Below the pieces are notes generated by a model. That model ran no database searches. It was not told where the DNA came from and worked only from the letters and a program-made list of their open reading frames with translations. Below, in pieces: positions 4,434-58,940 of a stretch of 64,000 nucleotides of DNA. Positions within the stretch are counted from its first letter, which is position 1; every line of letters begins with the position of its first letter. The position numbers were made by a program, and so were the translations under genes. The stretch is taken from assembly GCA_033238685.1 (NCBI GenBank), contig BRZM01000133.1:156481-220480 (forward strand), in the 5' to 3' direction. The stretch comes from Lates japonicus (lineage: Eukaryota).

Positions 4434-7092
4434 TAACACTGAGGGGAAAGCAACATGCACAGTTCAGACCTGCTGATGTTGTGTCCAAATATCCCCAGAG
4501 CTGAACTATTCATCCATTGTGCCTACAAACTAAAAATCACTTGAGAAAGCAGCGCCCCTGCAGGGGAGGAGGGTCATAATACCCATGATCCCCGGCCTCT
4601 GGAGCAGGAAGTATGGTTGTAAATAAAACAAACCTCTACTGCCCTTTATGGCTTCCTGGCTGGAGATCAGAGATGATCAGACTTAATACAGGTGTAATCA
4701 TTAACCTGTACTATGAAAGGTGGATAGGTCTGTTTCACACCGCCTCTGTGACTGAGTCTAAACTACAACCCTGCCCGTACCAACAAACAACACAAACCAA
4801 TCTAAGCAATAGAGATTCTAATCACGACGCCTTGGCATCATTGCATTGGAATCGGGGTTTGTTTACCCGACTTCTGATAACCCTCAGTTAACGGCCTCAG
4901 GGTGTTCAGGGAGCAGGTGGACTGATGGAGACTGTTACACTGAACCATCACAAGGTGATTTGAAGGCAAACACTGAGCATCATTGATTTAACCAGTCAGC
5001 CCATCGTAACCTGACAAATTGTAGGGTGAGTCACCAGCAGGTAAATGTCTGAATGTTTCCTGCTCCTGTGATTTTCTGTGTTTCTGTGTTTTTATATATC
5101 CGATGAAAAGACATTTCAACACATCACTGAGATTTGTAGCAAACAGCTAAACTGGGTAGCTGTAGCTCTGGGGTGACTTAACTTTCCCAGACTAGTCTCA
5201 TCGCCCTGTACTAAGCTTCATCCAGGCTCTTGAACACTTCCTATCTAATTGGCTGAGTCCACCTCTGCCCTTGACCTTGATCCCTCTTGCTCTCTCTGCC
5301 CCTCTGAGAGGCCAAATAAAGGAGCACAACACTGGATGGAGTCTCGTGACTGATGTAGGTCTACAGTCTGTTTTCCTGCGCTCCGTCCTCTCTCTCGTGA
5401 GCTTTTGTTACAACAGGAGGTTGACTCAGAGTCGTTGCCCATGGTTGTGAGGTTTAAACTACAGAGCTGGACTCTGACAGGATACACTTTGACCTTGGAA
5501 ATATCTGGGACAACTTACTGTAGAGACAACTTTAAAGAAACAGTCTGCTGCTGCTCTAAATTTTGTTATTACAAAACAGTGATCAAACCAACAGTGTGTT
5601 TGTCTCAACACTTCTCTCTCTGTCTGTGGCTCCACAGATTATTATATAATCTTTAAAAACACCTCACAAATATATTGTTTCATTTTAAAAAAAAAAAAGT
5701 ATCAAAATCTAGTTGCTCCTGTATTTTTATCAAACAAACAGGAGGAACCATATGTAGTGGTGGGGACTATCGGATCAATGACACTGTCATGATAATCATG
5801 AAAATTGGGCCTTTAAATGGCTGTAAAACACATTGAAACTTACTTATATTTTGGTAAGAAACAAATACTTAATAAAACATAGACACAGTTTTTTTATGAA
5901 ACCAATCAACAGTCTTGAGGTAATTATAAATCATGTAATTATAATCAATGGGTTTGAAACTTATGGGCTGTATTGAGTGAATGTTTTCAGTCAATTCTCC
6001 GGAGGGAGCTATTTGTTGTTTAGCCACATATAACATTACCCAGCTAACGTTTAACCACTGGTGACCAAAACAGACTGGTAATGCAGAATCCAACATTTAG
6101 ATGAATGTTAACGTAGTATAACGAACCCAGTTGCTATGTTCAGTAACTACTGTAACGTTAACTAGTTAGCATTACTAGTTAGTTAACTCACCTAAAGTTA
6201 CTGGCTAAAATCAGAGGAGTTTATTTGCCACTCCTGAGGATAACGATTATCCCCATGATCAACTTATTAAAGCGTGTTTTCTGTGACAACAAATCAAAGC
6301 ATACTGTCACATCCTCATTGGGGGACTATTTTCAGCCAAGTGATGAACCACATTTGGTGCCTTTGAGTATTTCTCAGCAGCAGGATCGGTGTGTTTGTGG
6401 AATACACAGCGCCTGTGGATCCGGGGAGTCGATATCATCAGGGCCAGGACTGAAAAGGCTCATCAAAGTCAGTAGGAATCATCCTCCCCTCTGAGACATT
6501 GACTGCCAAATGGGAGGATCCACTGAATATGGCGCGATGTATTTTGCCCAGACCAAAGCGATGGATCACTGGACGAAGCAAACAAACAAGTGATAGATGA
6601 GACAATCTCAGAGTCAGAGGGAGCCGGGCTGAGATGTTACAGGGAGGATAATAAAAACCCTGAAACAAAGAGAAATATTAATGAGGAGAGACAAAACTTT
6701 CATCTGCTGCTCCTCCGGCCAACGAGCTCGAGGGGAAATTTAACCAGTCACATTTCATCGACTGACGCGGCAATGGGAACAGACTGAAAGGAGGCTCCAG
6801 TTCAGGCAGAGAAGGTAACAAACAAGATCTAAATGATGTTCCACACCAGCATCACTCAGCCAGTCTGCTGACTCAGCTGAACAGACCGAGCAGCAGCAGA
6901 ACCTCCTAACGAAGCCCTTGTAGACTCGCTCTGGTTTCCAGCTCTAGCAGCAGCAGCAGGAGCATGTGAGTGGAAACTGTTTTATAGATGCAGAGGGAGC
7001 AGAGTAATGACTGGACACGGAGCAGAAACACCCTCGCTCAGAGAAATGTGTCCAGAAAAATGTCTTTTTATAGTGTTGACTTCATCACTTAC

Positions 7093-7144
7093 CCATCTGA
7101 GTCCTGGTAGTTCACGTTCAGTCTCTTGGTGGAGCCCAGCAACT
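7093..7144 (-). CDS. caskin2: caskin2 coding exon 2. It encodes (K)LLGSTKRLNVNYQDSDG, the start of the first ankyrin repeat.
   Basis: AG acceptor (ttttgcag|AGTTGCTGG) and strong GTAAGT donor. The translation matches 16 of 17 residues of human CASKIN2 'KLLGSTKRLNVNYQDADG'. Phase is continuous with exon 1: a+ag gives K. Confidence 0.75.
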
Positions 7145-20026: not shown

Positions 20027-23000
20027 GAGCTGACAGACGAGATGAGATTTAAACCGAATGCCGAGAGGGAGCCTGAAAACATCTGCAAACTCTGTTTGAT
20101 GAAGGTGGCGACATTTGGAGGAAACACTTCTAATCTACACAAACACCTTCAGTTGCAGCAGAAGACTGAGGCTGACAAAGTGTAGAGAGACCAGACACAC
20201 AGCTCATCCATAGGTGGTGCGTTCGGGTGAAGCAGTAAATATAAGAAGGATGGTGAGAAGTGGAACATGCAATGCTGAGAAAACAACCTTCGCAGCATTC
20301 GTTTCAAAAACTCAGAAAGAGAACTCTACAGATGTTGAGCTGACACATGTCTTTTTCTGTAAAATGTCCACAAATGTTCAGTTTCCACACGGTGACGTCC
20401 CTGCTGTCGATGAACCACACCCACAGCGTGACCTGCAGCAGTGAAGCAGAACAGATGTGCTGTGGAAACACGGCGGTCAGGGCTTGACAAGATGCATTCA
20501 GTGTTCTTTAATGTTAACGGTCACATCTCGTAACCTCACAGTCACTCGGTGAGTCATGTGACCTCTGAGCTGCAGCGATAAAAGGCAACGACTCCAGTTT
20601 GAAACTTACAAAAGAGAAACCGACCAACGAGACAGAACATCCATTACATAACGCAGCAAATAAAGAGAAACTCCAGCAGCCATCATCTGCTGCACACACT
20701 GTATCCCACTACACAATATACACAATATACACAGGACATCGCCCCAAACCACGTTCATTATTGTTTTTGTTTTTTTTTTTCATTTCAAAGCTTCTATAAA
20801 AAGTGAAGAGAGGACCTGTTTCCTGTACGGCTGCTGCGAGCACGCTCACAGGCAGCTTCTTTTAGAGGAGGCTGATCTCATTATTCCAGAGAAGGTGTTT
20901 ATGTGGAAAATAAGGAGACCGATAACTATCAGCATGAGAGCATCAGTTCAACAGCAGTTCAACAGACGTCCCAGAGGCTGGAGACGTGTTTCAAAACTCT
21001 ATGTGGGTTAATTAGCTGAATTTCTGAATTTCTGAGGACTCTCAGAGAAGGAAATCAGTTTGTGCTCCTGTTTTTAGACAAAGGAGTAAAAATATCTTGT
21101 GAACAGTGATGAATCAAACTTTGCACAGCTCCTCAGACAATGCACAAATTCATTCATTTAAAATGAGTCGGGATGGAGCTGGATAGAAGAGATATGTCGT
21201 GTACGATGTATGTCGAGTACTTTTTTTGTTGATAGTTTTCTCTATTAAACTGTGAAAATGTCCTTTATTTCTTTCTTTATTTCTTGTTTTGTCCGACAAA
21301 CCTCAGATATTCAGTTTACAAAAAAAGAAAAGCAACAAACAGAGTTTTCGTCTGTCGGCCGTCTGGATTATCTCACTGTTTCACTGTCACTTTTTCTAAC
21401 CTTAGATCACTAATCTTCAACCTGAAGGATTTTAATCGTCAGACGTCTGGATCTGAAGTTATCAGAGAAACAAGCTGAGCTAACAGCCGCTCCTGACGTC
21501 CAGTGTCCACTCAAAAAACATTTTATTCAGTGTTTGACTGGTTTGAATCAGCTGCTCTGTTTGTTTTGGAGAGGAGGAAACCTCTGAGGGGAATTCAGCT
21601 CCTGAACCATCAACACTGAAGGAATCCTGACCCAGAAACAAGCTGAGGTAACGTTAGCAGCAGCTCCTCTGAGAAACACTGATTTAATGTGAAACTATTT
21701 TATTAAATGCTTTCACTGGGTTGAATCAGCGGGTCTGTTTGTTTTGACAGCAGTGGTAAAAAGAAAGAGCAGAGATTTCTTTGCTTGGAAAGACGACGGT
21801 GATTCGGGGAAGGATACGTCGTGACAGAACGTGAATGTGGGCATCATTGGTTCCAAAAGTCTCTGTTTTAGAGCCTCGAAAAGTCCGGAGTAATGTGGAC
21901 GCCAGGTGTTACCATAGCAACAGCGATGAGTTTTAAAACTAAAGAGTGGATGCTTGATAAAAACAGACCCAGAGTCAGTTATAGAAAATAAAGTCAGGCC
22001 TCTGTGGGTTTCTTCTCCGTCCTCTGGAGTCAGGACTAAAACCTCTGACAGCCAGAGGTCCTGAGGGCCCCCCCCCCCAGTCCCAACACAACACAGCAGC
22101 TTTGTTTCCCTTTTCAGAGGTAAGACTGCTTTAAAGCCTATAGGAGACCTGTCTGTTTAGTGGAGCAATTAAACATTTAACACTCCAACAGCAGAGTTGA
22201 CAGGCAAACACTATCAGCTCAGACACACAGGCAGAATTTCATGCACTGTCTGAAAGCTTTTAACACTTTCCCTCAAATCTGTCTCGTGTGGAGGAGAGAG
22301 GAAAGTTTCCCTCCTCACTATCCCCCTGGTTTATATTTGGTGTTTTGTGATGAGAGGGTGGAAGCAGAGCGAAGCAGCAGAGTCCCACCAAACTTCCTCA
22401 GAGTAAGAAGTGACTGACTGACTGAACAAACAGTCTTCTGTATTTGCTTGGCCTTTCCACAGAGCAGAGTACATTCGCTGTAAAGGAAACGTCCTGGTTC
22501 TGGGTCTCTCTTCACAGTGTGGATGGAGCAGCGAGGGTGTGAAGCTCTGAATTTGCTCCAGTTACATATGAGGCCTGTCAAGTGACTCAGTTATTCCCCA
22601 TTTGTCAGCAGGAAAACCAAGACGTTTGACAGCAGGCAGCAAGCAATTTGCACAGAAAACTCTGCACTAAATGATTTTCTGGAGAAAGACACACATTTGA
22701 AAAACTGGGTCTGAATATATGAGAGTCCCAGAATTCCTCTGTCCTCAGAGAAAGTTAGCGTTAGACTGAAACTGGCTCTACATCAGAACATATTACTACA
22801 CCTGTTATTGCTCTGTTTAACTTTGTTTTTCAGGTACGATTTCCCTCTAACTGAGTGATAGTCAGCAGATTAAACTGCTGGAATCAGACCCAGAGAGTTC
22901 AGACTGATGCTGAACTGTAGATCAGTTAAAGAGACTTAGGAGTCATTAAAAACCAGAGTTAGAAACAGGGTTTGTTGTTAAGCTGAGACATCCTTCGTCA

Positions 23001-23662
23001 GGGACATGATTGTGTTGATATATGAAGATTTAATCTGATCTCACAGGTTCAGACTCCTCTGGAGCTCAGATAGGAGCCGTTTCCTAATTTAAGAAACCTG
23101 ATAAAATGCTTTGACTTCCAGGCCGGTTAAAAGTGATTTGCTCCTTGAGACTCTTGATAGAACCTGAGCCAGATCCTTAAAAGCAGGAAAAGTGTGAAGT
23201 CTTAGAGGTGGAGGAGCTGCAGAGTGAAGCAGGGGCTCAAAGTTTGTGGGAGATGATTGGCTGAGCTGAGTTTGAACCCAAACTCATGAATAAAACATGA
23301 GTGTGTGGAGAGACAGCAGACATCCAGAGTGGGCGTTCATCGGCCAAACACCCCCCCACCCTCCAACCCCTCTTTTGTAGCAGAGACTCCAACACACTGC
23401 TCGCTGTTTTGTCTCGGTTCTCAACGGCCGGCTTTTCATGGAAGGACGACAGGTTTACGAGGCTCCAATAATGGGACACTGATGAGCTTCAACACCAAAC
23501 ACCTCTCCAATGGCTCAATAATAACGCCTCCTGTGGCACACTTCTGTTAAATCAGACAGATGGGGATGTTAGAGGTCGCTTTTGTTTGTGGTTCAAACGT
23601 TTAAAAACCCACCAGAGTCTGTGGGAGTGACTCTGTGATGAGAGAACATCAGATTTGTAAAC

Positions 23663-24030
23663 TCCCTCAGTGATGATGTGTTTCTGTAGTCCAACCTGAA
23701 GTTAGCATCAGCCAGGTTCCTCCACAAAAAGACAATTAAGATTATTTCACTGTGTTCTGGATTATTCCAGAAAATAAACCGAGCAGCTAAAGTTTCTGAT
23801 CCTTCCAGGTTTAGTTGATCAGATAATCTTCACAGATGAACACCACTGTTCTGATGTTTGAAGCCTAAATCCAATCTCCAGAAGTAAAAAGCTAATGTTA
23901 GGCTATAAACCAACTACACCACGGTCACATGACGTCAACGTCTCCACCACTAAGCTTCCAACTGGTCATTTCATTTAGCTCTGAGCTCTTCTACAAAAGC
24001 CTTTCTTCTTAGAAAGTTAGTGATAGTTGG
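23663..24030. mobile_element. Dispersed repeat (family C), about 350 bp.
   Basis: It is near-identical to 52222-52560 ('cagtgatgatgtgtttctgtagtcc…cctgaagttagc…aaaccaactacaccacggtcacatgacgtcaacgtctccacc…ctaagcttccaactggtcatttc…gaaagttagtgatagtt'). Confidence 0.8.
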
Positions 24031-26852
24031 ACGTGTTGAACGTCACTCTGATCTCAAACCTGTTGTTCTCCCATAGTACGTTCACATTTTAACCAAGAGA
24101 CAGTCACTGCTGAACTTTACGGCCGTTTTGCTTGGATTGGTTTCCAATCGAGCCCTGAACAGGCAGGGGGGTCAACTCTGCCAATATATTGCATTTTTAA
24201 TGACCTCATCTTGTTGTTTTCTTTTCTTCTGCAGTGCTTTACTGACACAGACTGGGGAACCAGCTCCATTCATTACATTCACATAAAGATAATGAGGGAA
24301 ACATGTTTTTTTTCCCAAATTCTGTTCAAATTTCTGCAACATTCGGAGGTAAACCTGGACACTGGACGGCAGCAGAGGAGGTTGAACCAGCGTCTGGTTC
24401 AAAAGTTCATTTGCCCATTTAGAGACAAGGTGCTGTTCTCCTGTGTCCAGGGGCTTTGTTGATGTTTGGGGCCCTAAAGAAAAGGGTCTTAAACTTGGTC
24501 TTAAATTTTGAAAATCAATTCACAGAAACTCTACACTTCCTGGAAAACTATGTTAAAATTCTGGGCCAATGAAAGGAAAAGCCTTAAGCCTTAACCTTTT
24601 TTTTTAAGTCAATCTGTGAAAAGTTCCACTGAACAAATGTTTGACTTCACTTTCTCAAAGAACTCCTGAGAAGTGAAGTGAGGTTATCAGATTAAATTCT
24701 AATTCAATAGAGCAGCACAGTCACAGAGAGCTGACTGTAAACAGCAGAGCTATGGGAATGAGATTCCACAGCATCTGATAAACAAAGCTGAACCCCCCCA
24801 CCCCTCCCCAGCACTATAATTCCTTTTAATCCTGGCTGGGCACCATCTGGGAGCTCCTTGTGATTTGGGTGATAGCAGTTGGGCGTGGGGCAGATACTGA
24901 AGCACCAGATGTCAGGAGGACAGAGTTTGGGTCGCACATGTCCTTCACAAATCACAGGAAACATCTCAAAATCCCAAAGAGGCCGTCGGTTTTTCATCAA
25001 GCAAGAGAAGCAGAAGTTTCTTTCTTCCCCTGGTGGAGGAATTGTGGCAGACATTAAGAGGTCTCAGACATTCGATAGGCCGGTGTTTGCAGCACACAAT
25101 GGTCGACAAAGCTCTCGAGTAACATAAAGGTGATGGATTGGGCGTGTTGAGGTGGAGAACAATGGGTGGGAGTAATGTGACAGTCTGCAGGAAGTCCCTG
25201 AGGGAGCAGGACAGGCCTGTCAGCTGTCTGCAGACACCATCTCCATACACCCTGAGACTCCTGCCTCCTCTACACCTGCCACATGCAGGGAACGCCACCG
25301 CCACATCATGAGGGAGTTATCATCACCAGTTTCTAACTTTCAGCTTATTTAGGTTGAACTGTAGAGAATCAGGAAGCTGGAGACAGTGATGATCACCAAC
25401 GTCTTCTCTCATGATACAATATGAAAGCTGTAAACCTCTCTGTCGCCCCCACAGAGATCTCATTACACCGCCATTGCTTGTTGACACCGAACAAAGCCGA
25501 TGTGATGACGCCCTGGTTTGTGATTTTATACAGCACGCTGCTCCAATGGAAACCTTCACTGCTGGATTTAAGGTGGATTTAAGCTGCTGTTTGTGGTGCG
25601 TTCCAGTTGTACTTGGAAGTTGGAATTTCTGAGTTCCTAGTCTGAAGTTTGAACCTGAACGCCCCTTGAAGTCGGATTTCCAACTCGGAAAGTCGGAGCA
25701 ACTGCTGATGTTAACAATGGCTATCTGAGGTGTTCTATAAACTCCATGTTTTTCCGACTTCTCAACTGGAACGCCGTTACCCCGGAGGTGACGTCACTCC
25801 CGGGTCCAACCTCCGATGTAAATGGAACAAAGCACAAGCACTACTTCCTGTTTACACCGACATGCACATGCCCAGTGTGTGTGAACTGTCATGTGATAAG
25901 TATTTTCATGTGTGTTAGCAAACATCAGAGAGAAAATGTATGAATCAAACATAAACTGGGAAATTAATTCTTCTAAAGGTTCATGGGCATCAGACTCTAA
26001 AGCAAAAAACAAACATGGCTGCCTCATGTTTTAACCCGATGTGTTGACCTCCAACTCTTCACCTCCTGACGCTCCTTCATTTACCCTCAGAGGTCAGAGG
26101 TCAGAGAAGAAGCTGGACGCCGGCCGTGTGGACGGTCTTGTGACAGGTGAGAGGTTATCTGCCTGATAAAGACTGACCTCCTGCCGGCCCCGGGGCCCTC
26201 AGCGGGCCCCTCTCCTCAGTCACTCTGACGGCAAACAAAACCTGCTGTCAGGCAGAGAGGCGACGGAGAGAGAGGAGGAACGAGTGAGCCCGACTTTATC
26301 AGATTATATCCACAAACTCTGGTTTTACTGGGTGTTGTTTGTTTCCTTTTTATAATATTTGATCATTTTTCCAAACATGAATGGACAGAAAACAAAACTC
26401 CATGAGAAACTGATTCACTGCTGAACACATCGAACACTGAACACTGACCGACTCCAGCTTTAGCAGCAGGTGGTCCCAGGTTCATGTCCCTGCACAGGGT
26501 CCGCACAGAACAGAACTATAAACAGAACTACGTCCACTCTCACGGTCAGTTTCTGACTCGACGCTGCAGCTCTCGGCTGTTTCCTCAGAGCAGGACACAG
26601 TGAAGGAGTGGTAAAGACAGACCGGACACACTGTTGTAACTGGAGATAACAGACATTGTAGAGGAGCACAATGAAATCTGCTCAGTAGAGTCACCTCTCT
26701 CCTGTTTTCAGTCGCAAAAAAAAATCAAAATATTTGTATCCATGAATTTAAAACATCTACTCTTCCTCCAAAGTGAAATCAGAGATTCAGAGACAAACAA
26801 CTCGTCCTCTGCCTCATTTAAAACCATGTTTCACAGCAGCTTGTAAAGATTC

Positions 26853-26945
26853 ACACAGTAACACAGACACACTAACAGATGGAGGCAGTGGTATTCCAGC
26901 AGCTCCTGGTAAAATCCCTGTTTTTGTCAATGGAGTCTGGTAGTG
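26853..26945. mobile_element. Family A solo right arm.
   Basis: 'cacacagtaacacagacacactaacagatggaggcagtggtattccagcagctcctggtaaaatccctgtttttgtcaatggagtctggtag'. Confidence 0.7.
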
Positions 26946-27557
26946 AAATGTAGTGATGGTTCTTTTATCCACTATAATCCATCTGTGTGTTGCTGTGAGG
27001 TTGAAATATTCATGGAGGCAGCAGACAGACAGAGAGCAGGATCATCATCCATTTAGTTTTAGGATGGAGAGTTTCAGAAGGAGTCAGCTGCTCCTCTGCC
27101 TCCCTGCTGTCTGCACGTTTATTACCAGAGAATCAGCTGAGGTTAATGCTGATGAAGCTTCGTCTGGATTTTAAATCCACTGTTTTCTCCCTGTGTTTCC
27201 AAACGTGGCCATTTTAACACCAAGAAACTGCAGAGCGCTCCACACTCCTCCTGCATGTTTGACTTGGAGAAGAGAGTGAAACCAGCATGACTCTGCTCTG
27301 AAACCATAATAATACCAATCTAAACAGGAAGATGGATGAGAGGTCAGGATGAGGACACGTAGCAGACGACTGGATTATTTAATAACTGTTAAATAAGTTA
27401 TTTACAGAGCAAACTGAATTTATCAAACTTTAAATGTCTTTACCGATTTAAATTTACTCCCATCACACTTTTCAATAAATTACCAGTCACATAAATCTAC
27501 AATTATTACACTGGTCAGGCTGGAATTAATCCACACAGACACTCAGCTACAGCTTTG

Positions 27558-27817
27558 TTTAACCAGAAACATCTCTATATATCACTACCAGACTCCACTG
27601 ACAAAAACAGGGATTTTACTGGGAGCTGCTGGAATACCACTGCCTCCATCTGTTAGTGTGTCTGTGTTACTGTGTGGTACTTTTACTTCAGTAAAGTATC
27701 TGATTACTTCTTCCACCACTGAAAGTCACACAGTAACACACACATACTAACAGATGGAGGCAGTGGTATTCCAGCAGCTCCCAGTAAAATCACAGTTTTT
27801 GTCAATGGAGTCTGGTA
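27558..27817. mobile_element. Foldback, MITE-like palindromic element (family A), complete hairpin core. The arms of about 110 bp, 'ccagaaacatctctatatatcactaccagactccattgacaaaaacagggattttactgggagctgctggaataccactgcctccatctgttagtgtgtctgtgttactgtgtg', flank a loop of about 50 bp.
   Basis: The left and right arms are near-perfect reverse complements within this copy. The same unit recurs at least 9 more times in the window. Confidence 0.85.
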
Positions 27818-27842
27818 TGAGAGCGGTATGAGCGTGACTTAC

Positions 27843-27936
27843 TGTTCCTGTTGGTTTTCAGCTTGGACAGCAGTTTCTGAGTGGACAGCAGGTCTCCGCT
27901 CTTCACCGCCTGCAGCAGGTCCTGCTCCTTCCCCAT
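27843..27936 (-). CDS. caskin2: caskin2 coding exon 1. It has a real ATG and encodes MGKEQDLLQAVKSGDLLSTQKLLSKLKTNRN.
   Basis: ATG sits in a CpG-rich context, and the exon ends AACAGGAACA|GTAAGT. The N-terminus resembles human CASKIN2 '[32 protein letters not shown]'. Splicing to 7144 reconstitutes the conserved KLLGSTKRLNVNYQD motif. Confidence 0.75.
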
Positions 27937-28300
27937 GCCCGCTCCCCGCCTCCTTGTGTTTAAACCAGGTTTATTTAAAATCCTCCCGCCGCCTCCTCAG
28001 AGTCTCATGCTGAGCGCCGGAGACATGGACCTGCCTCAGGTGAGACTCTCCACTTCCTCCCTGTGTCTGACGCTCAGCTGACAGCCAGGAAACAACCCCA
28101 GACTCAAACTGTAAAAACAAAAATCCTCTGTGAGATTTCCTCTGAGCCCGCAGAGATGGAAAAACTCCTCTGTTGCTTAATTTCCTGCTCAGACTTTTCT
28201 TCTTCTCAGTTTTGATTCTGGGGGAGATGTTATTTCCAGCGTCGGCCGAGGGGGGCTGGAGGTTTGTGGAGCTACTGTGGATCTGCAGGGGGAGGGTGGT
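27937..28300 (-). promoter_or_regulatory. caskin2: Probable caskin2 5'UTR and core promoter, in a CpG-rich region.
   Basis: CpG and GC-rich sequence lies immediately upstream of the caskin2 ATG on the minus strand (ccgccgcctcc, gagcgccgg). The TSS was not determined. Confidence 0.4.
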
Positions 28301-28821
28301 GGTGTGGTCAGGACTCGGAGCCTGAGGAGGAAAAGAAACGAGAAAAACAGATCAGTTCATCTATCAGACGACTCCAGACTGGAAACCACAGCCGCTCTCT
28401 CCTCTGCTGCATGTGTGGACGTGAAACCAGAGAAACCAAAGCAAAGTTCTTCATCGGACCCCAAATCCACTCAGTGGATCCTGATCCTCATCCTTATCAA
28501 ATCTGAAGTCTGCACAGTGACAGTCAGGCCTCAGACAGGAGCTGGAGGACTCATCACATTTCTGACATTTGAACTTGAAAACATGACGTTTCTTTGCTGC
28601 TTCCTTCTGTTTAATGTCACAGTAAAGTGAACATCTGTGGTTTTCAGGCTGTTTAACGAACAAACCAGACATTTATCACCGTGTTCTCATGTTTGATGAA
28701 CCGACAGTTATTCACATTGACAGGAACTGACCTTCATCCCCTGTGAAGTTCAGTGTCAGTAAATGTTTCTGCTGTTTGTTCCTCATTTACATCGTCTGTC
28801 ATGACGCAACGTTTCACATCA

Positions 28822-29152
28822 AGTGTCTGACAACATGATGATAGGATTCCTACAGAGACAGAGCTTTTTATTAAAGAGGAAGATCCTTTTAGTTTAACCA
28901 GAAACATCTCTATATATCACTACCAGACTCCATTGACAAAAACAGGGATTTTACTGGGAGCTGCTGGAATACCACTGCCTCCATCTGTTAGTGTGTCTGT
29001 GTTACTGTGTGGTACTTTTACTTCAGTAAAGTATCTGATTACTTCTTCCACCGCTGAAAGTCTCACAGTAACACAGACACACTAACAGATGGAGGCAGTG
29101 GTATTCCAGCAGCTCCCAGTAAAATCCCTGTTTTTGTCAATGGAGTCTGGTC
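28822..29152. mobile_element. Family A foldback element with its 5' extension of about 80 bp ('ctgacaacatgatgataggattcctacagagacagagctttttattaaagag…agatccttttagtttaacc').
   Basis: It shares the same arms and loop as 27558-27817, plus the conserved 5' extension also seen at 32473, 45768 and 58549. Confidence 0.85.
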
Positions 29153-30699
29153 TGATTGACTCCATGCTGAAAATGAAGACTGTGGTTATGAGCACCAGGC
29201 TTCTGCACATGAACGTCACTGTGGGTTTCCAGTCTTATCTGATGTGATGTTAATGTGGCCTGAAGGCAAACAGGACAAAGATTTACACACACACACACAC
29301 CTGTCACAGGTGTGGTCAGGGCTGTGAAACCACAGTGACGGAGTGTTTAACCTCCTGTGAGCTGAGAGGACGCTTTAATTACAGCTCAGCAAACCTTCAA
29401 ACACAAACAGCTCATGGAGGATGTTGCGGGCGGCCTCTGCTGTGTAAACACTGAGAGCAGAGATTCACACACCAAACTCCACTGACTTCTTCCACGTTTT
29501 TACACCAGAGGAATAAGTGATGTTTTAGGTCACCTGACTGCGCTCTCTGCTGCTTCCCTCAGGGCTCCACGATAGATTACACTCTCACTTCGGCCGTGCA
29601 TCCACTTCATCTCAACTCCAGAGCAGCTACTTAAACTCTTCCGGCCCAGTGGCCAGGCACAGCTCAGATACAGGAGGGACAAGTTGGCAGAGTTGGTCCG
29701 AGCTTCGTCTCTGCTCCAGTTTTGCTGCAGATAACTGACATGCCTGCTGACAGTCCTGATCTCTGCATGGAAACAGGATCACTGCAGCAGCTCCAGGCCT
29801 CAGGAGCAGTGTTGCCATATAAACAACAGGAGTGTTTGGGGGGGCGGGTGTTTGCAGCCGGATCCCAGAGTCCAGATAGAGACACTGGTCTGGCCCTGCA
29901 CCCTGCTCCGAGTCCTGCTTTGTTTTCCTGGTTACAACTTGTTTCATTACATAACCAGGAGCCTCAGAGCAGCACAGGGCGTAAGCAGAGCTGTCAGTCC
30001 CATTTACACCCATCATGTCCCCCTTTCTCTCCCACCTCCCTCAGGCGTTTTGTATTCTCACTGCATTCATGACAAAAGCAACAATACTCATAAATTTCAC
30101 TCTGACACTGCAGGAGCTCCAGTTGAAATGAATAAAACATTTTATTGCTCACAAACAAACACCACTTGTTATTTATCACAGTGAAGTCAGAGATGCAGGA
30201 TGAAGAATCTCACCAGATTTAAATGATCTGTTTCAGTGTGTTTACACCAAAGGTCTGGATAATACAAAAAGCTCCAACCAACTCCAACATGTGTCGTCCT
30301 TTTTAATGTTTAGGTAATGTCATTCCAGCCTCCATTCGAAATCTGCCACTTTTATATTTAAGTGTTCATCAACCAACATAAAACAGCCTTAATGGATATG
30401 ATTCCAAGTTTCCCTGATTTAATAAGAGTCTGTCTTTAAATCGGGAGAAAGTAATGCACAAACAATCCCTTCTGAACCTTCTCACTGGAAGTCTTGTTTT
30501 AAATGTCGGACACTGACCGCAAGTTAGCAGGCACTGTGTCCGACTCTAACTTGACATTTTACTAAATTTAAAGTGTTGCTCTGTGAGGTTAAAGTGCGCC
30601 GAATTGAAGACGTGTTTCTAAAGACGCAAAAAAGTCTTTATTTTATTTTATTTTTATATTAAGCTCATTTTCTGACAAACGACTCCAGGTTAAAGAGGT

Positions 30700-31400
30700 G
30701 TCGACATGACGCTCTCTCTGCACCGTAGAATCTGGCGTTTCGCGGCCGGAGTCTGGTATGTAAACACACCGGGGGGAAGCTTCCCCGTCACCTCCACCAG
30801 CTTCGACCTTTGTACCGAAGTAAGTTCACGCACTTGTTCTTCTTTTCCCAAAAAATCCAGAACAATAAGGAGAAGAAAGTGGATTCAAACCGGACTTACC
30901 TCTGCTGGTCAGGTGTGTCAGAAACTTTTCATCCGCTGAATGTTAACGGACCACGGAGGCAGTTTGAGGGAAGACTCCGAGGGGCTGACAAAGTATTCCC
31001 ACTGTCGATATTCCAGAAGAATCCAGTATTTTATTCCACGGTGTGAACTTCCACCGGTATTAGTTTGTACTTTCACCGCTGCGCAGAGTTAACGACAGAT
31101 TTCTGTAGGTTTTTTTACGACTTTCTCACTTCATCCGACGCTGACGCTCCTCCGGCTTTTCCCTCCGCGCCGTGAATGCCACATTCACTCCGCTGGATTC
31201 TCCAGAATGTGGACACGGTGTCAAGGCGCCGTGAACACAGCACGCAACATCCGGCTGTGACTTTCAAAATAAAACACGTAACCGAAAGCTCGGAGTCTCA
31301 TTTTAACGAACACGGATTTCACCCGGATTAGACGACGTTTCTCACCAGATACAGCGGGTTACGACTTAAATCTATCACACGTCCACTGTTTATACATGTT
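30700..31400. promoter_or_regulatory. CpG island between caskin2 and st6galnac2, with divergent consensus splice donors. It is a candidate bidirectional promoter or unannotated first exons.
   Basis: CpG density is high ('cgcggccggag', 'ccgcgccgtg', 'ccggcttttccctccgcgccgtg'). There are GTAAGT donors on the plus strand ('ccgaa|gtaagttc', about 30820) and on the minus strand ('cagcagag|gtaagtcc', about 30903). No conserved coding frame was recognised. Confidence 0.4.
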
Positions 31401-32472
31401 TATATAAGAATAGTCTGCTCGTTGTTGAGTCGAAATCTGGAGGTAAATGTATTTAATTAAAACATTTTTTCTGTTAATAAATAGAATAAACTTGAACTCC
31501 ACTTACTTCCAGAATTATACTATAAATACAATATGTACGTGTTCAGCTTAGTTTTATGATATAGGCTGTAACCAAACTCTAAACTCTGGAGATCATCCTC
31601 TCTACTGGCTTGTGTCTGACAGTATATTATATGATGCCTGTAAATGTTTTGACACATTCTCCAGAGGAAATGTAACATTTTCTGTGCTTTTATTTCGAAG
31701 AGTCAACTGCCCCTTTTCCGGTTATTTTCTGTCTTTTATTCTGCAGCTTAACACCGTCGACCCTCCCACTGGGTTTAATGTCAATTTTTTCCACAAAGAC
31801 AGGGTGTTTTATCAGATTATATCTAACTGTCACCATCCTGCTCCTCACACTCACACTTCACTTAAAGCTGCATTTACTGACTTTTTTGTCGCCTGTGAAA
31901 CGAGCTGTAAACACAATATTCTCACATGAAGCAGCTGATGAAGCAGCTGTGTCTGACCTGTTATCACACAGCTGCTTATTCCCACATCCAGCTGTTACAG
32001 ATCAACACCATGATTCATGTGGAGTCAGCTCTGTGTTTGGTCAGCTCCACCTCCTCCAGCTGATTTTACATGTAAAACAATCTGATCAGTTAAGAAAATA
32101 TGATGCGAGGTTAAATCCTGAAGATAATTTCTCATTGTTACATCAATAACACTCTAAGACTCAATAAAAAGGTAAAATAATCAACATATTTACTTCAGAA
32201 CAACAATCCCTGAAACATTTACTAGAAATTAAATATCAGTGCAAAAAGAAAATCCCATTTAACATGAAATTATTATATAAAATGTAACGTAGCATCATTC
32301 ATATAAAACAAAGACCATGTTCACCTGTAAAATAATTGCAGCTGAATTGATCAAACACACAATTGATCAAATCAACTTAATTAAATGAAATGTGCATAGC
32401 ATCTACAGTGTGTTTCTTGGTGTAAGAAAGACCATAAAGTACGTAAAAAGTCCTCCTTAAAGTTTCACCCTT

Positions 32473-32611
32473 TAAAGTTCTTGTTTTTGTCTCTGACAGA
32501 CTCAGATTGTTCTTCTCAGTGTCTGACAACATGATGATAGGATTCCTACAGAGACAGAGCTTTTTATTAAAGAGTCAGATCCTTTTAGTTTAACCAGAAA
32601 CATCTCTATAT
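32473..32611. mobile_element. Family A partial copy: the 5' extension and the start of the left arm only.
   Basis: It matches the 5' extension of copies at 28822, 45768 and 58549, and is truncated after 'catctctatatt'. Confidence 0.7.
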
Positions 32612-32933
32612 TATCTTGGTGTGCCAGCACGTTGCAACTGATCTATCATGTCTGCCTTTGTTTGGATGCATCTAAAAAAAAACATTACGAACCAATCAGT
32701 CATTCCACCTCATCAATTTCTTTTTGCAGTTTTTGTTGTCAGCGTGCAAAAGATCTAACAAATAATTTTAAAATAATTTCTTCACAGCTTTTTTACTCAG
32801 TGGAACAATGAAAGAGTTACTGTCAGTAAAGTAAAAATAAACTCTATTCAGTAAAATACCAAAATTGTTTAAAGTCTGTATAAAAAATAAATTTCACCCT
32901 GAGCTCCTTCTGCTCTTTAGTCCTGAGAACGTA

Positions 32934-33131
32934 TCATCCCCACCTCCTCCGCCAGCTGCCTCCTCTCCTCTGGTACAGGTCGATGACCCTGTTGTAGTGC
33001 AGCACCTCCCACAGCCGTCGCTCCAACTGAAAGTCGTGGTTGGAGTAGAACTTCAGAGGCCTCCTCACAGAGTCGTAGTAATGATCAGAGAAGGCAGCGT
33101 AGTCCCCGGTGATGAAGCCAAAAGCAGAGAC
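32934..33131 (-). CDS. st6galnac2: ST6GalNAc-I/II-family sialyltransferase, last coding exon (exon 9). It encodes VSAFGFITGDYAAFSDHYYDSVRRPLKFYSNHDFQLERRLWEVLHYNRVIDLYQRRGGSWRRRWG followed by a stop.
   Basis: Acceptor is ctgcag|GTCTCTGC. The translation matches the human ST6GALNAC2 C-terminus 'VSAYGFITSNYWKFSDHYFE…[28 protein letters not shown]' (sialylmotifs S/VS). TGA stop at 32934-32936. Confidence 0.88.
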   Translation of the reverse strand, partial: VSAFGFITGDYAAFSDHYYDSVRRPLKFYSNHDFQLERRLWEVLHYNRVIDLYQRRGGSWRRRWG

Positions 33132-33237
33132 CTGCAGGACAGACGGACGAACAGGACGTCCCTCAGTCATCAACAGGTCCATCTGACGACCAGGACTTCA
33201 TGCCTCTGGAGTTTATGAAGCTACTGCTGCAGGGAGC

Positions 33238-33325
33238 CTACCAGACTCCATTGATAAAAACAGTAATTTTACAGAGCACACAGGAGCTGCAGGAACACTG
33301 CTGCCTCCATCAGTTAGTTTGTTTA
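33238..33325. mobile_element. Family A solo arm, diverged, inside the st6galnac2 intron between exons 8 and 9.
   Basis: 'ctaccagactccattgataaaaacagtaattttacagagcacacaggagctgc…ctgcctccatcagttagtttgttt' is similar to the family A left arm. Confidence 0.6.
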
Positions 33326-33463
33326 AAAGATTAAAATAATGTGAAGTAGGAGCAGGAAATCCTCACATATGGCATGTATTGGAAGTACTTAATCAAAGTT
33401 CAAGTACCTCAAATTTGTACTTAAGTGCAGTACTTGAGTAAATGTAGTCGGTGTGTATGTTAC

Positions 33464-33566
33464 CTGGTCACAGGTGTGCAAGGCGGTCAGCAGCATCAGA
33501 GCTCCGGTGCTCGGCATGTACAGGTGACGAGTCCGGACATCGGTCATCAGAGGAGACTGAAGGAGA
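33464..33566 (-). CDS. st6galnac2: st6galnac2-like exon 8. It encodes (S)[34 protein letters not shown].
   Basis: Acceptor tcag after a polypyrimidine tract, and donor CAG|GTAACA. The translation matches human '[20 protein letters not shown]'. The second candidate acceptor 10 bp downstream gives an in-frame stop and was rejected. Confidence 0.82.
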
Positions 33567-33683
33567 CTGAGAAGTGATAAAATATAAAGATGGAACTCAG
33601 CGCTGGGATCAACTCAGATCTGTTTTTATTTCTCTAAACTGACTTTGTAAATAAAATATTCTCTGGTCACTGTGATCCTTCAC

Positions 33684-33764
33684 CTGCGTGTCACGTAGGA
33701 AATAAAATCCGGGTGGAGAACCTTGAAGCTCTCAGGTGGTTTGTGGCCAAAATACTTCCAGGGT
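33684..33764 (-). CDS. st6galnac2: st6galnac2-like exon 7. It encodes (R)[26 protein letters not shown].
   Basis: Acceptor ccgacag|ACCCTGG and donor CAG|GTGAAG. The translation matches human '[29 protein letters not shown]'. Confidence 0.85.
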
Positions 33765-34458
33765 CTGTCGGACAAAACGCAAAAATGTGAATAAACAATT
33801 ACAACAGTAACAGAAAATACTTCTACTCCAGCTCTCTGAACATGGTTTCAGATGTTTAGGAAAGGTACACTTCAACATTTTCTGCCAAATAAACGTGATG
33901 TAAAAACGTAATATAACAACAAGAACTCCCATCAAAAGGACTTGAAATAAAAGTCTGGACACAGGATGAGGGACAACGGAGAGGGAAAGAAAACCTCTCA
34001 TGTATTCTTTTCATGATCAGTGAAACACCTCCACCTACAGGCCACAAATGGTGTTACAGCACAGATAGAAAGAGGAACATTATTAGCTCATGAATTCTTG
34101 ACTTATTACCAATGTTTTGTGAGGTAACAGTGACCTTGACCTTTGACCTTTTACCACCAAATTCTAATTAGTGCATCCTTGAGTCCAGGTGAACTTTTGC
34201 GCCAAATTTGAAGACATTCTCTCAAAGTGACACATCACGTTCACAAGAACTGGATGGACGACATGAAAACACACTGTCTCCTGCCTCAGCATAAAAAGTA
34301 CAAATCTAGATCAGCAGCTCTGTCAGTGTCCTGCAGGAGGATTATAGTCACTGTTGACTCATAAGATCCACACACTGGTTCTTTAACACTGACTGAAAAG
34401 GAGAAATAAACTTGAATCTGTATGAAGCGCCACATATTAAAGTATTTAAACCACTCAC

Positions 34459-34562
34459 CTGTCGCCCGTGTCCCTGCCTGAGCGGACAGTCTGACCCCGA
34501 ACAGCAGCTGCAATCATCACATAGTCCCTGAGGTCTGATGGGATGAAGATGTACTTTATGTT
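34459..34562 (-). CDS. st6galnac2: st6galnac2-like exon 6. It encodes [34 protein letters not shown].
   Basis: Acceptor ttctgcag|AAC and donor GACAG|GTGAGT. The translation matches human '[35 protein letters not shown]'. Confidence 0.85.
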
Positions 34563-34650
34563 CTGCAGAAGAAGAAGATGGAGGAAATAAAGTCAGACGA
34601 GGAGAATAAAACCGCTCAGAGGTTTGTTTCTCTGAGTGTTCGTCTCTCAC

Positions 34651-34789
34651 CGAGCTCTGAGGGATTCTGGTGAAGCCGTCTGCTCGGTACATGCGGAGCG
34701 CGTTCTTCATGGTGTTGGCGGTGAAACCGTAGAAGGAAATCTTCGTCCCCACGTCCTCCTCAAAACCTCTGATCACCGCTCCGTTCATC
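34651..34789 (-). CDS. st6galnac2: st6galnac2-like exon 5. It encodes (R)[46 protein letters not shown].
   Basis: Acceptor cttcag|G and donor TCG|GTGAGA. The translation matches human '[45 protein letters not shown]'. Confidence 0.88.
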
Positions 34790-35006
34790 CTGAAGACAGA
34801 GGAAACAGCAGCAATAAAATACTAACACCAGATAAACAGTCAGAGACTTGGAGCCTTCAGGCAATGTAGAATCAGTCCAGTTTATGTGAGGACTGAGTCC
34901 TGAACAGACCTGAAACAGCTCTACCAAGGCTAAAGAGTCCCACAGGTGAGAGGGTGGAAATAATATTTAAAACTACAGTAAAGGGAAGTGCTGGGTGGAC
35001 GTCCAC

Positions 35007-35163
35007 CTGAAGACAAAGTCGTGGCTGTCGATGATTTTCCCCTGTCCCGATCCTAAGAGGATGCCTCCGTTTCCAACCACAGCGCAGCGAACACACCTGC
35101 CAGGTGAGCCTCGATCAAAGAGACCAGACGAGCTGTTGAGGAGGGAGAGGGCCGATCTGACGA
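35007..35163 (-). CDS. st6galnac2: st6galnac2-like exon 4 (sialylmotif L). It encodes (V)[51 protein letters not shown].
   Basis: Strong acceptor tcctcttttctctgcag| and donor TTCAG|GTGGAC. The translation matches human '[52 protein letters not shown]'. Confidence 0.88.
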
Positions 35164-35322
35164 CTGCAGAGAAAAGAGGACGAATATCATCCACCTGCAC
35201 ACCAAACTCTGGTCTCCTGGCTGGATATCGGAACGCTGGTTTTTAATGACTCCATTACACCTGAACTTGTTTCTCAGCCTGGATTAGTTAAATCAGTTTG
35301 AAGAAGGTGCTCTGGAGTGTAC

Positions 35323-35494
35323 CGTTAACAGGAAGTCCCTTCCAGCCATAAGGAGGTCTCTGGTTCCTCAGCCGTTCCCAGGCAGGTTTGGAGAAACTTT
35401 CCTTCCCCTGAAAGACCGGCACCAAGAACCTGAACCTCCTCCTGAGGAGAGGGTTGTGTCTCACCGCTTTCCTTAAAGAACATGGAGTCTCCAC
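35323..35494 (-). CDS. st6galnac2: st6galnac2-like exon 3 (stem region). It encodes VETPCSLRKAVRHNPLLRRRFRFLVPVFQGKESFSKPAWERLRNQRPPYGWKGLPVN.
   Basis: Acceptor tttctgcag|GTGGAG. The translation resembles human 'CRHLLHLAIQRHPHFRGLFNLSIPVLLWGDLFTPALWDRLSQHKAPYGWRGLSHQ'. The 3' end is set by reading-frame continuity to exon 4 and uses a weak GTACAC donor, because an in-frame TAA follows 36 nt later. Confidence 0.7.
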
Positions 35495-40699: not shown

Positions 40700-40977
40700 C
40701 TATATATCACTAACTGTGTGGTACTTTTACTTCAGTAAAGTATCTGATTACTTCTTCCACCACTGAAAGTCACACAGTAACACAGACACACTAACAGATG
40801 GAGGCAGTGGTATTCCAGCAGCGCCCCAGCAAAACCTTTCTTGTTTTTGTCAATGGAGTCTGCAGTGAGCATGAGATGTTTCTGGTTAAACTAAAAGGAT
40901 CTTCCTCTTTAATAAAAAGCTCTGTCTCTGTAGGAATCCTCTCATCATGTTGTTGTGACTCTGTCAGTGCTGATCTC
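40700..40977. mobile_element. Family A copy in opposite orientation: loop, right arm and an inverted 5' extension. The left arm is deleted.
   Basis: 'ctgtgtggtacttttacttcagtaaagtatctgattacttcttccaccactgaaagtcacacagtaacacagacacactaacagatggaggcagtggtattccagcag…' is followed by the reverse complement of the 5' extension. Confidence 0.8.
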
Positions 40978-45179: not shown

Positions 45180-45181
<2 letters not shown>

Positions 45182-45422: not shown

Positions 45423-45767
45423 CTGCAACCACTCTGATAAAGGATTTATTATTTTTAAGAAGTAATGCTGCAAATATTTGCAGGTTGCAGTTTCTCAAAC
45501 ATGAAGATTTGCTTTTGCTTTTTCTTTGTTTTATATCACATTCAACGTAGTTCTGGACGACTGCTTAATAAAACCTGCATTTTCACATTTTCACATTTTA
45601 TAAAGTAAACAATAATTAAAACCATTGAGAAAATTATCTGTAGATTAACTAGATGAACATAATCATCTGTTACACAATATCAACTGCACTATTTCTCATT
45701 TCTCCATGTATTTGGGGTAAAATGACTGAGAGAGACAAAACTAAACTAAACTGTGCACCCCAGTGTG

Positions 45768-46132
45768 CTTGTTTTTACCACTGACAGACTCAGATTGTTA
45801 TTCCTTGTGTCTGACAACATGATGATAGGATTCCTACAGAGACAGAGCTTTTATTAAAGAGTCAGATCCTTTTAGGTTTAATCCAGAAATATCTCTATAT
45901 ATTATTATTAGATTTATTGACAAAATAGGATTTTACTGAGCCGTTGATTAATTTATCTGTTAGTGTGTTTGTGTTACTGTGTGTACTTTTACTGCAGTAA
46001 AGTATCTGATTACTTCTTCTACCACTGAAAGTCACACAGTAACACAAACACACTAACAGATGGAGGCAGCTGTAGATTAGCAACTCCCTTCTTCTGCTCG
46101 GTAAAATCCCTGTTTTTGTCAATGGAGTCTGG
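45768..46132. mobile_element. Family A near-complete copy (5' extension, diverged left arm, loop, right arm) in mxra7 intron 1.
   Basis: Both arms align to other copies, though the left arm is partly degenerate. Confidence 0.8.
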
Positions 46133-47329
46133 TGGTGATACATAAGTGATGTTTGTGGTTATATTTTGTACAGCTCACATACACCTGTTGGTCACCTGTT
46201 GTGTCACAGGTTGCAGGGACATAAAGCTGATTGTCAGTCTGGACAGCGGCTGTTGTTCGGGGGCAGCCAAGTGCTTTACTGCCTGTTCAAGATTAAGCAT
46301 CATCCTCTTCAGCAGATGGCCGCCCACCTCCAGCATTACCGCCAACACTGATACAGCACACACACACACACACAGTCAGTGTAAACAGCTGGTACAGACT
46401 GGCCAACATGTGCACTGACTTCCTGCTCGAGGAGTGTGTGTGTTTCAGGTGTGAATAAGCTTAAGTGTTGCCTTTTCTTCCTGAGCAGTGGTCAATCTCA
46501 TGGTCAGAGGATGAAAACCATCAGACTGATTGATGTTTTTTCTCTGAGTCTAAATCCATACAATCATCATGTGATGTATTATAATTCAACAAAAAAACCT
46601 GTGTCTGTGTGTTGTAAATCGACAGCTCTGCTCTGTTTACCTTCCTGAAATGACTCTATCTGTTGAGCATAAAACACGACATCAGCCTGATGCACCAGGC
46701 TGCTTTTCTACTCAAACATCTGATTCAGTGAAAACAAAAGAAGCCTCTGATCCATACAGATCCACTGAGATATCCTACATTAGAGCAGCTCGTCCTCAGC
46801 TCCAGCTCATCAGCATGGAGCTGTAGAGTCTGGATCTGTCACGCCATGCCTCCTGCTGCTCCCATGATCCTGCTCAACAGCAGCTATTACATTTAAAATT
46901 TATCAAAAATATATCTGGTGCACAAATTGCTTTTTCGGCAGCAACTAATTATTATTTTCATTATCAATTAATCTATTGACGACTGTGTTCGGCCACACTG
47001 ACAAATGTCCGTCATGTCTCTGGTGATGCTTTCAAATGTCTCGCTTTGACACTGAACAGAGAAAAGCAGCAAATCTTCTCAACACGGAGAAATCAAAACT
47101 ACAGAGGATCGAGTAAAGAACAAATTACTTCAACGATTAATCGATGATCGTACAGCTTCTGACTAATTGACTGATTTAATAATCGGCGAATCGTCAGAGC
47201 CTGGGCTGATTAACCTGTTTAATCTGAGAGAAAACCTGTTGAACAGGATGTTCGAGCCCATCCACTGAGACCCAGTTCTACTAAGACTGGACCTGAGCAA
47301 ACGAATATGACCGTATCTGGTCTAGATAG

Positions 47330-58548: not shown

Positions 58549-58940
58549 AGTCCGTCCACTAAAGTTCTTGTTTTTACCACTGACAGACTCAGATTGTTAT
58601 TCTAAGTGTCTGACCACATGATGATAGGATTATTAAAGAGTCAGGTCCTTTTAGTTTAACCAGAAACAGCTCTATATATCACTGCCAGACTCCACTGACA
58701 AAAACAGGGATTTTACTGGGAGCTGCTGGAATACCACTGCCTCCATCTGTTAGTGTGTCTGTGTTACTGTGTAGTTCTATTACTTCAGTAAAGTATCTGA
58801 TTACTTCTTCCACCACTGAAAGTCACACAGTAACACAGACACACTAACAGATGGAGGCAGTGGTATTCCAGCAGCTCCTGGTTAAATCCCTGTTTTTGTC
58901 AATGGAGTCTGGTAGTGATATATAGAGATGTTTCTAGATC
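58549..58940. mobile_element. Family A most complete copy (5' extension, left arm, loop, right arm, inverted terminal 'ctctatatatcac…agaaacatctc') in the mxra7–jmjd6 intergenic region.
   Basis: The terminal inverted repeats extend to 'cagaaacagctctatatatcactgccagactcc' on the left and 'ggagtctggtagtgatatatagagatgtttctag' on the right. Confidence 0.85.

Follow-up and report, generated by a model that had tools for sequence, protein, structure and literature searches.

The first coding exon of caskin2 in the akame, Lates japonicus, is bracketed by two copies of a foldback element, a short repeat made of two long inverted arms around a small loop. We analyzed both copies, here called c1 and c2, in a stretch of 64,000 nucleotides (nt) of contig BRZM01000133.1 (assembly GCA_033238685.1, positions 156,481 to 220,480, forward strand); this stretch is referred to as the window, and its own coordinates are used throughout. 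Both copies probably go back to old insertions, now fixed, of an abundant Lates foldback that resembles a miniature inverted-repeat transposable element (MITE); they would be neutral passengers whose arms are kept matched by copying. The arrangement is real but ordinary, and all that stands out is that the arms, in two copies and two species, appear to have evolved in concert.

Two direct copies of a foldback element around caskin2 exon 1

The features at the 5' end of caskin2 are as follows.

27551..27825, plus strand: c1, foldback copy in caskin2 intron 1, with edges fixed by other-species homology resuming at 27553 and 27836; left extension 27554-27585, left arm 27586-27676, loop 27677-27726, right arm 27817-27727
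28822..29158, plus strand: c2, foldback copy upstream of exon 1, with Toxotes homology up to 29174; left extension 28822-28921, left arm 28922-29009, loop 29010-29063, right arm 29064-29151
27843..27936, minus strand: caskin2 coding exon 1, 31 codons plus 1 nt, ATG at 27936; the same exon opens the annotated caskin-2 of L. calcarifer
27841..27842, minus strand: exon 1 donor GT in the context ACA/GTAAGT (exon/intron), read from the sequence and conserved in all orthologous loci fetched
7092..7144, minus strand: caskin2 exon 2 (…LLGSTKRLNVNYQDSDG), coordinates approximate
27937..28421, minus strand: conserved promoter-proximal or 5' untranslated region block, 74-83% identical to the percomorph loci L002-L011 and L018 introduced below

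Exon 1 translates as MGKEQDLLQAVKSGDLLSTQKLLSKLKTNRN; joined with exon 2 (near 7144), it matches the caskin-2-like proteins of both Lates japonicus and Larimichthys crocea at 100% identity. A first-pass annotation of this DNA had described two same-orientation copies flanking exon 1 and its upstream region, and this description holds: positions 27554-27820 and 28889-29155 form a direct repeat of 267 nt with 97% identity, and c1 and c2 are 96.6% identical in direct alignment versus 86-87% in inverted alignment. The orientation is fixed because the loop is asymmetric and the left extension is unpaired; the opposite orientation, once considered a possible outcome of realignment, was not found. 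On the left, c2 carries 67 nt more family sequence than c1, reaching 28821/28822, in agreement with the start at 28822 that had been assigned to it. The unpaired extensions outside the arms of c1 and c2 measure 32-100 nt. The stem of c1 ends at 27817, 25 nt from the end of exon 1, as close to the donor as had been noted, and the near end of c2 lies 886 bp upstream of the ATG, where about 900 bp had been given.

The stems measure 88-91 bp, short of the >100 bp first claimed. In c1, two arms of 91 nt (27586-27676 and 27727-27817) are 95% complementary around a 50-nt loop, and the L. japonicus stem retains five unrepaired mismatches; in c2, arms of 88 nt (28922-29009 and 29064-29151) are 100% complementary around a 54-nt loop. 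On the minus strand, the loop reads CAGTGGTGGAAGAAGTAATCAGATACTTTACTGAAGTAAAAGTAC. When folded as RNA of the pre-mRNA strand, c1 forms the extremely stable hairpin that had been anticipated (-185.7 kcal/mol, z -18.9), and c2 folded as the DNA strand gives -126.5 kcal/mol (z -21.5). The intact stems contain Watson-Crick pairs only, with zero G-U pairs. The region upstream of exon 1 had also been called a CpG promoter, a label that does not stand: the observed/expected CpG ratio across 27843-28421 is 0.43-0.47, equal to the window mean of 0.44, and there is no CpG island.

Both insertions predate the split of two Lates species

Orthologous loci were obtained from Larimichthys crocea (L001) and from further percomorphs (L002-L011) via short gene models containing exon 1, including six ENA/Logan contig sets. 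The neighboring gene ST6GALNAC2 gave access to the loci of Toxotes jaculatrix (L018), a second L. japonicus assembly (L017), and L. calcarifer (L019). In L001 and L002-L011, neither c1 nor c2 nor any other family member is found, and homology ends a few bases into the intron. Both copies are also missing from Toxotes, although its anchors lie only 20 bp from c1 (27533) and 16 bp from c2 (29174); the anchors that flank c2 are 282 bp apart in Toxotes versus 856 bp in the window. In L006, the downstream anchor lies 62 bp past the donor, and the window minus c1 aligns across that interval, which is a compact empty c1 site. Thus, c1 is a discrete insertion in a short intron stretch.

L. calcarifer carries both copies with the same edges and flanks as in the window, c1 at 19331-19599 and c2 at 18137-18459 of L019. 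One alignment runs through c1 (window 27483-28538 to L019 19668-18627; 1056 bp, 93.6%) and another through c2 (window 28718-30121 to L019 18560-17211; 1414 bp, 91.1%). The annotated L. calcarifer caskin-2 (1350 amino acids) opens with the same exon 1, and the stem lies 25 nt past the donor there too. Across 24 kb of L019, all eight family copies are orthologous to window copies, and neither species has a new insertion there. Since the sites are shared by both Lates species, both insertions are older than the L. japonicus/L. calcarifer split. The alignments place both in the Lates lineage, after its separation from Toxotes, Larimichthys, and the other sampled percomorphs and before the divergence of the two Lates species. 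By our own rough reckoning, the flank substitution divergence of 3.3-5.0% between L. japonicus and L. calcarifer corresponds to something like several million years, if not longer; in the arms, where 5 of ~88 positions differ, divergence is about the same as in the flanks. The first-pass annotation had proposed that close relatives carrying both copies would speak against its reading of the arrangement, and this is largely what we observed.

Both copies landed in poorly conserved spacers. The c1 site is a poorly conserved stretch of 45-60 bp of intron 1 directly after the donor, and c2 sits in the unconserved spacer between the block at 27937-28421 and the next conserved block (from ~29174). 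Exon 1, the consensus donor, and the promoter-proximal block are intact in both species, and the elements diverge about as much as their flanks, suggesting that c1 and c2 are neutral passengers.

An abundant foldback family in the window

BLAST of c1 against the window returned at least 11 copies or fragments, at 3702-3752, 7467-7525, 26851-26963, 27554-27820, 28821-29155, 32473-32611, 33238-33322, 40713-40953, 45765-46161, 48290-48499, and 58549-58935. Pairwise identity among these members ranges from 77 to 99%, a spread that indicates amplification over a long period. Besides c1 and c2, four members are referred to repeatedly.

58549..58937, plus strand: c3, the most complete window copy, used as the family reference; arms of 111 nt at 58662-58772 and 58825-58935
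26851..26963, plus strand: c4, solo right arm in intron 1, 590 bp from c1; ortholog at L019 20274-20357
40713..40966, plus strand: c5, copy without most of its left arm; its ortholog lost the loop and right arm instead
45765..46163, plus strand: c6, older foldback copy, ~80% identical to c1, with a C>T cluster in its left arm

The 111-nt arms of c3 reach the apparent ends of the element, and c4, c8, c10, and c11 are older members consisting of solo arms. Element copies of 270-390 bp are short and noncoding; the longest open frame (84 amino acids) had zero homologs among 5.8 billion proteins. Tandem Repeats Finder detected no tandem repeats in 26000-31000, and the arms are unique sequence. Our literature search, which covered stretches of the element sequence and Lates MITEs, found no description of this foldback family. 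An exact-pattern scan of metagenome contigs with a 31-mer gave no match. With a 20-mer, five fish-like contigs were recovered that share only a core of ~40 nt, one of them with an outer segment as well, and there were no hits in prokaryotic genomes. Three fish-like metagenome contigs hold the ~40-nt core only (…CTGTTTTTGTCAATGGAGTCTGG…), without an inverted partner. These contigs show the arm core to be old in teleosts; the matches are too few for a consensus.

Given this density, the bracketing of exon 1 is not beyond chance. By rough arithmetic from ~1 family copy per 6 kb, there is a better than even chance that some family pair lies within 1.3 kb in the window, and the shared orientation of a pair is a coin toss (50%). 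An element edge ≤25 bp from a given donor has a chance of roughly 0.4% per site, with many such cases expected genome-wide. The bracketing is not special because the family is present in so many copies, at least 11 in 64 kb, with c4 only 590 bp from c1.

Probable concerted evolution of the arms

L. japonicus and L. calcarifer differ at five arm positions, each of which is mirrored on the partner arm in both c1 and c2. The paired arm segments read …CCATTGACAAAAACAGGGATTTTACTGGGAGC and GCTCCCAGTAAAATCCCTGTTTTTGTCAATGG in L. japonicus and …CCATAGAGAAAAACAGGGATTTAACCAGGAGC and GCTCCTGGTTAAATCCCTGTTTTTCTCTATGG in L. calcarifer. All four arms of the L. calcarifer c1 and c2 are 100% identical or complementary over 87-89 nt, and RNAalifold finds 5 of 101 pairs changed on both sides. 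Among the four sequences, 11 variable sites group by species (the five mirrored pairs plus one unpaired site in the left extension); grouping by locus is seen nowhere within the element, locus-specific sites being confined to the edges. Within a species, c1 and c2 are 97.8% (L. calcarifer) or 94.2% (L. japonicus) identical, while c1 and its own ortholog are 91.8% identical. The L. calcarifer variants are also present in the c5 ortholog, 11 kb away, and at least four copies differ from their orthologs at the left-extension site.

The mirrored pattern rules out independent mutation as its source and makes DNA-level copying the economical explanation; stems built of Watson-Crick pairs only likewise fit DNA copying better than RNA-level selection. 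Human Y palindromes are a case of arm-to-arm gene conversion. In the Lates foldbacks, such conversion or intramolecular template switching would keep the arms matched, and conversion probably also takes place between c1, c2, and nearby family members, plausibly triggered when replication stalls or the DNA breaks at the hairpin. Perfect hairpins can both arise and persist through template switching (PMC8794818). As in palindrome arm-to-arm conversion and template-switch hairpins (PMC8794818), the arms stay complementary while the species diverge, and changes occur on both arms. Unlike in those systems, the Lates palindrome is tiny, with arms of ~90 nt, and the same variants are also found in copies 1.2 kb and 11 kb away, implying that exchange between dispersed copies is involved too.

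As a clean two-species example of small dispersed foldbacks whose stems stay perfect through mirrored changes, the pair offers a modest but useful case from nature for the study of template switching or gene conversion at hairpins. It also cautions against taking compensatory hairpin changes as proof of selection on RNA. For the caskin2 locus itself, the finding matters little: this is an old, tolerated repeat pair, not a recent or risky one.

Loops seem to carry more private substitutions than arms, but the difference is weak (P = 0.04 with three copies, 0.43 with all four), and we do not rely on it.

Further observations concern the kinds of change seen in the arms. A TG/CA difference between the species (e.g., at 28951-28956) falls on a site that reads CG in older copies (…TTTTACCGAG…), and TA intermediates are seen as well. 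We considered a small inversion as its origin and dropped it, as the CG of older copies and the TA intermediates show two-way CpG decay. The other four arm differences are complement-type transversions (T/A three times, C/G once), an unusual spectrum. At c5 (window 40713-40966 versus L019 7487-7653), the two species lost opposite halves: L. japonicus retains a left-arm stub, the loop, and the right arm, and in L. calcarifer the left arm is joined straight to the right outer extension. These opposite losses are direct evidence that the Lates foldbacks collapse by arm deletion and are structurally fragile.

Alternative explanations

Several observations weigh against two independent insertions with copied arms. 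Within ±8 bp of the ends of six copies, we found no target-site duplication of ≥4 bp, a duplication of 2-3 bp being possible, and the right and left ends vary from copy to copy, which leaves a cut-and-paste origin unproven. c1 and c2 stop at exactly the same point on the right, and the whole of c1 is contained in c2, so that c1 might be a local copy and not an independent insertion. The mirrored differences could also be explained by correction within each element, if ancestral mismatched arms were resolved oppositely in each species. c3 still carries such an arm mismatch; correction confined to single elements does not, however, explain the left-extension site. Finally, the window probably derives from the hybrid assembly of the Kochi individual, and base-level differences and some of the arm identity are possibly polishing artifacts. 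Over 13.5 kb (window 32638-45925 versus L017 15229-1821), two assemblies of the same low-diversity species are separated by 145 mismatches and by 196 indels, of which nearly all measure 1-2 bp.

A local origin, in which break repair or template switching copied part of c2 from 1.3 kb away to give c1, or part of c1 to give c2, is the alternative that fares best, and we regard it as possible though doubtful. The two copies have the same orientation, c1 corresponds to the subset 28886-29158 of c2, and both end at one family position (…GGAGTCTGGT.TGA), unlike other copies. The missing target-site duplication fits this origin as well, as does the position of c1, which fills a small gap with conserved flanks on both sides. 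However, c3 and c4 also share an end (…GTTTCT), so a shared end may mark a subfamily, and later homogenization of the arms hides which copy would be the parent.

It is unlikely, although worth serious attention, that arm identity and mirrored variants are artifacts of assembly or polishing, with multimapping short reads having overwritten c1 and c2 with the majority sequence of the family in each species. The akame assembly was made by Supernova with Nanopore gap filling and Pilon (PMC11346364), many 1-2 bp indels separate the window from the second akame assembly, and the arms of c5 and c6 in the window differ oddly from those in that assembly, which has a 5000-N gap over the region and whose two gaps both abut family copies. 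Locus-specific signal is found only at the element edges, as read mismapping would produce. Simple overwriting is nevertheless contradicted by private substitutions that survive in the loops and in the L. japonicus c1; the elements are 270-340 bp long, and paired reads anchor in their unique flanks. Moreover, the L. calcarifer assembly is long-read based (PMC4833346). Even if majorities had been imposed, those of the two species still differ at the same mirrored sites, implying concerted change in the family, and the presence, edges, and orthology of the copies do not hinge on base-level accuracy.

Selection on functional hairpins, as a source of small interfering RNA or microRNA (miRNA)-like products, as a target of ADAR or double-stranded RNA (dsRNA) sensing, or as a structural pair around the promoter and exon 1, is very unlikely to account for the perfect stems. 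Such selection would suit stems that are perfect or nearly so in both species despite 3-5% flank divergence, the five compensatory pair changes, and the fact that both species keep the elements in place, next to the donor and upstream of the promoter. A MITE hairpin can give rise to an miRNA gene, Made1 and mir-548 being an example (PMC1784062). Yet the same compensatory variants occur in c5, 11 kb away, and at least four orthologous copies show parallel change at the unpaired extension site, which points to a DNA-level process across the family and not to selection at the caskin2 locus. The absence of G-U pairs from intact stems is what DNA copying gives, the L. japonicus c1 has kept its five mismatches, and the arms diverge at an about neutral rate. 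No Rfam family reaches threshold, a stem of ~90 bp far exceeds an animal pre-miRNA, and the elements are missing in every non-Lates species examined, where the exon and promoter are conserved regardless. That both hairpins are selected as a functional pair around the caskin2 promoter and exon 1, whether as a dsRNA or small-RNA source or as DNA structures bounding a promoter domain, is very improbable; the compensatory changes between the two Lates species would then be the outcome of that constraint instead of passive gene conversion.

Possible effects on caskin2

Three consequences for the gene had been proposed. Interference with splicing is not supported: the donor has the consensus ACA/GTAAGT (exon/intron), it is used in the L. 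calcarifer annotation, and its accessibility in silico is unchanged without the element. A partition-function fold of 600 nt of pre-mRNA gave the 5' splice site the same unpaired probabilities whether the element was present, deleted, or transcribed only in part. Separately, within 27815-27900 (minus strand), the 5' splice site and the intron to about +28 (…CCGCUCUC) are predicted to pair with exon 1 (…GAAGAGCGG…) with a probability near 1, and this pairing is unaffected by the presence or absence of the element.

As for recombination between the copies, the proposed deletion finds no support, both copies and exon 1 being intact in two species, whereas sequence exchange gains indirect support from the mirrored variants. 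Deletion would be possible in principle; there is no evidence for it, and the arrangement is stable in both species, having persisted from before their divergence. Finally, small RNAs had been suggested. An intronic hairpin that pairs perfectly over ~90 bp could plausibly be processed by Dicer or ADAR, but nothing indicates a dedicated function, and mismatches are building up in the L. japonicus c1; small-RNA libraries of barramundi exist (PMC4833346).

Composite structure and classification

We take the loop sequence CAGTGGTGGAAGAAGTAATCAGATACTTTACTGAAGTAAAAGTAC to resemble terminal and subterminal motifs of the hAT or Tol2 type. In c7, loop sequence runs on uninterrupted for ~100 nt beside a single arm, and in c3, c6, c9, and c10, a continuation of loop sequence lies outside the left arm. 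Because of these continuations, the solo arms, and the contigs that share the core only, the foldback looks like an inverted duplication of an older teleost repeat. In an ST6GALNAC2 intron of Toxotes (L018 13771-13815), a stretch of 45 nt is 84-87% identical to the Lates loop (…TACTTTTACTTAAGCGAAGGATCTGAGTACTTCCTCCACCACTG) and stands alone without arms. This lone stretch speaks for an origin of the loop as a piece of the end of another transposon with a wider distribution.

We classify the family, from its sequence features, as a putative MITE-like foldback repeat and make no superfamily assignment. It is short and noncoding, reaches a high copy number (at least 11 in 64 kb; 8 in 24 kb of L. 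calcarifer), and inserted discretely at an empty site; the target-site duplication typical of MITEs was not seen. Zebrafish Angel is reportedly a long-hairpin MITE. Like vertebrate elements of this kind, Angel and human Made1 among them, the Lates element is short (~270-390 bp), noncoding, high-copy, and nearly all one inverted repeat. It likewise occupies introns and gene flanks, in one lineage only, with empty sites in relatives. It differs from them in that no target-site duplication was found, its ends are not constant, no autonomous partner was identified, and its loop holds a fragment resembling the end of another transposon. Its arms, at 88-111 nt, are also longer than those of Made1, an 80-bp element (PMC1784062).

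Several other classes were considered. Foldback (FB) elements of Drosophila and other invertebrates share with the Lates element very long inverted arms, a small center, instability, and arm loss. However, FB arms are built of tandem subrepeats, which Tandem Repeats Finder did not detect in the Lates arms (26000-31000), the Lates element is ~10 times smaller, and no coding partner of the FB or MuDR type was seen for it. A non-autonomous hAT-derived element was rejected because the hAT-like motif lies in the loop and not at an end and there is no 8-bp target-site duplication. Non-autonomous hAT/Tol2-like teleost elements are presumably similar in the loop motif, with the related 45 nt in the Toxotes intron, but in Lates the motif is internal and no matching second terminus exists. 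Assignment to an animal miRNA or hairpin-RNA gene by curated family found no support, as the Rfam scan of the window gave no family at its gathering score (the best hit, to the plant family MIR9555, scored 33.7 bits versus 119). One trait recalls short interspersed elements (SINEs): the right end is common to c1 and c2 and their left ends differ, resembling 5' truncation. No tail, no tRNA- or 5S-like head, and no flanking duplication were found, and other copies have different right ends.

Assembly quality

Two akame assemblies exist, a linked-read assembly of a Miyazaki individual (L017) and a hybrid assembly of a Kochi individual made with Supernova, Nanopore gap filling, and Pilon (PMC11346364). 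For L. calcarifer, the assembly was built from long reads (PMC4833346). Window and L017 are 100% identical over 19375-23804 (4.4 kb) and 97% identical over another stretch; one of the two akame assemblies probably has an imperfectly polished Nanopore gap fill. The presence, boundaries, and orthology of the copies are independent of base-level accuracy, but the inference of concerted evolution depends on it.

A 5000-N gap in L017 (15504-20503, window ~23805-32637) covers caskin2 exon 1, c1, c2, c4, and c9, and both N gaps of L017 (1-1813 and 15504-20503) start beside family copies. Because gaps in one akame genome coincide with the foldbacks, it is worthwhile to mask or check these repeats when working with Lates assemblies. 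L017 departs from the window at 32638, by c9, where it has a c3-like right end and flank sequence supposed to be unique to c3; the c3 flank must therefore itself be repeated. In the left arm of c6 (45806-45980), 10 of 16 substitutions relative to c2 are C>T, as are all 7 differences from L017 (1814-1945), and the right arm of c6, L017, and L. calcarifer (L019 3153-3264) lack these C>T changes. The cluster could reflect deamination-type hypermutation, gene conversion in the other sequences, or assembly error.

Neighboring features

Between ST6GALNAC2 and caskin2, ~2 kb (29269-31274) is 68-74% conserved with Toxotes and several other percomorphs and has no obvious coding frame; this block may be an enhancer region or an unannotated exon. 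An open frame of 272 codons at 47284-48099 (minus strand) consists of a degenerate, low-complexity tandem repeat of the PEPV/QNQ type and is probably not a gene. The neighboring gene ST6GALNAC2 (Glyco_transf_29; 32965-35501, minus strand) is 91% identical to the L. japonicus protein over rough exon joins. JMJD6-like exons at 62873-63816 (minus strand) were recognized by eye from the translation.

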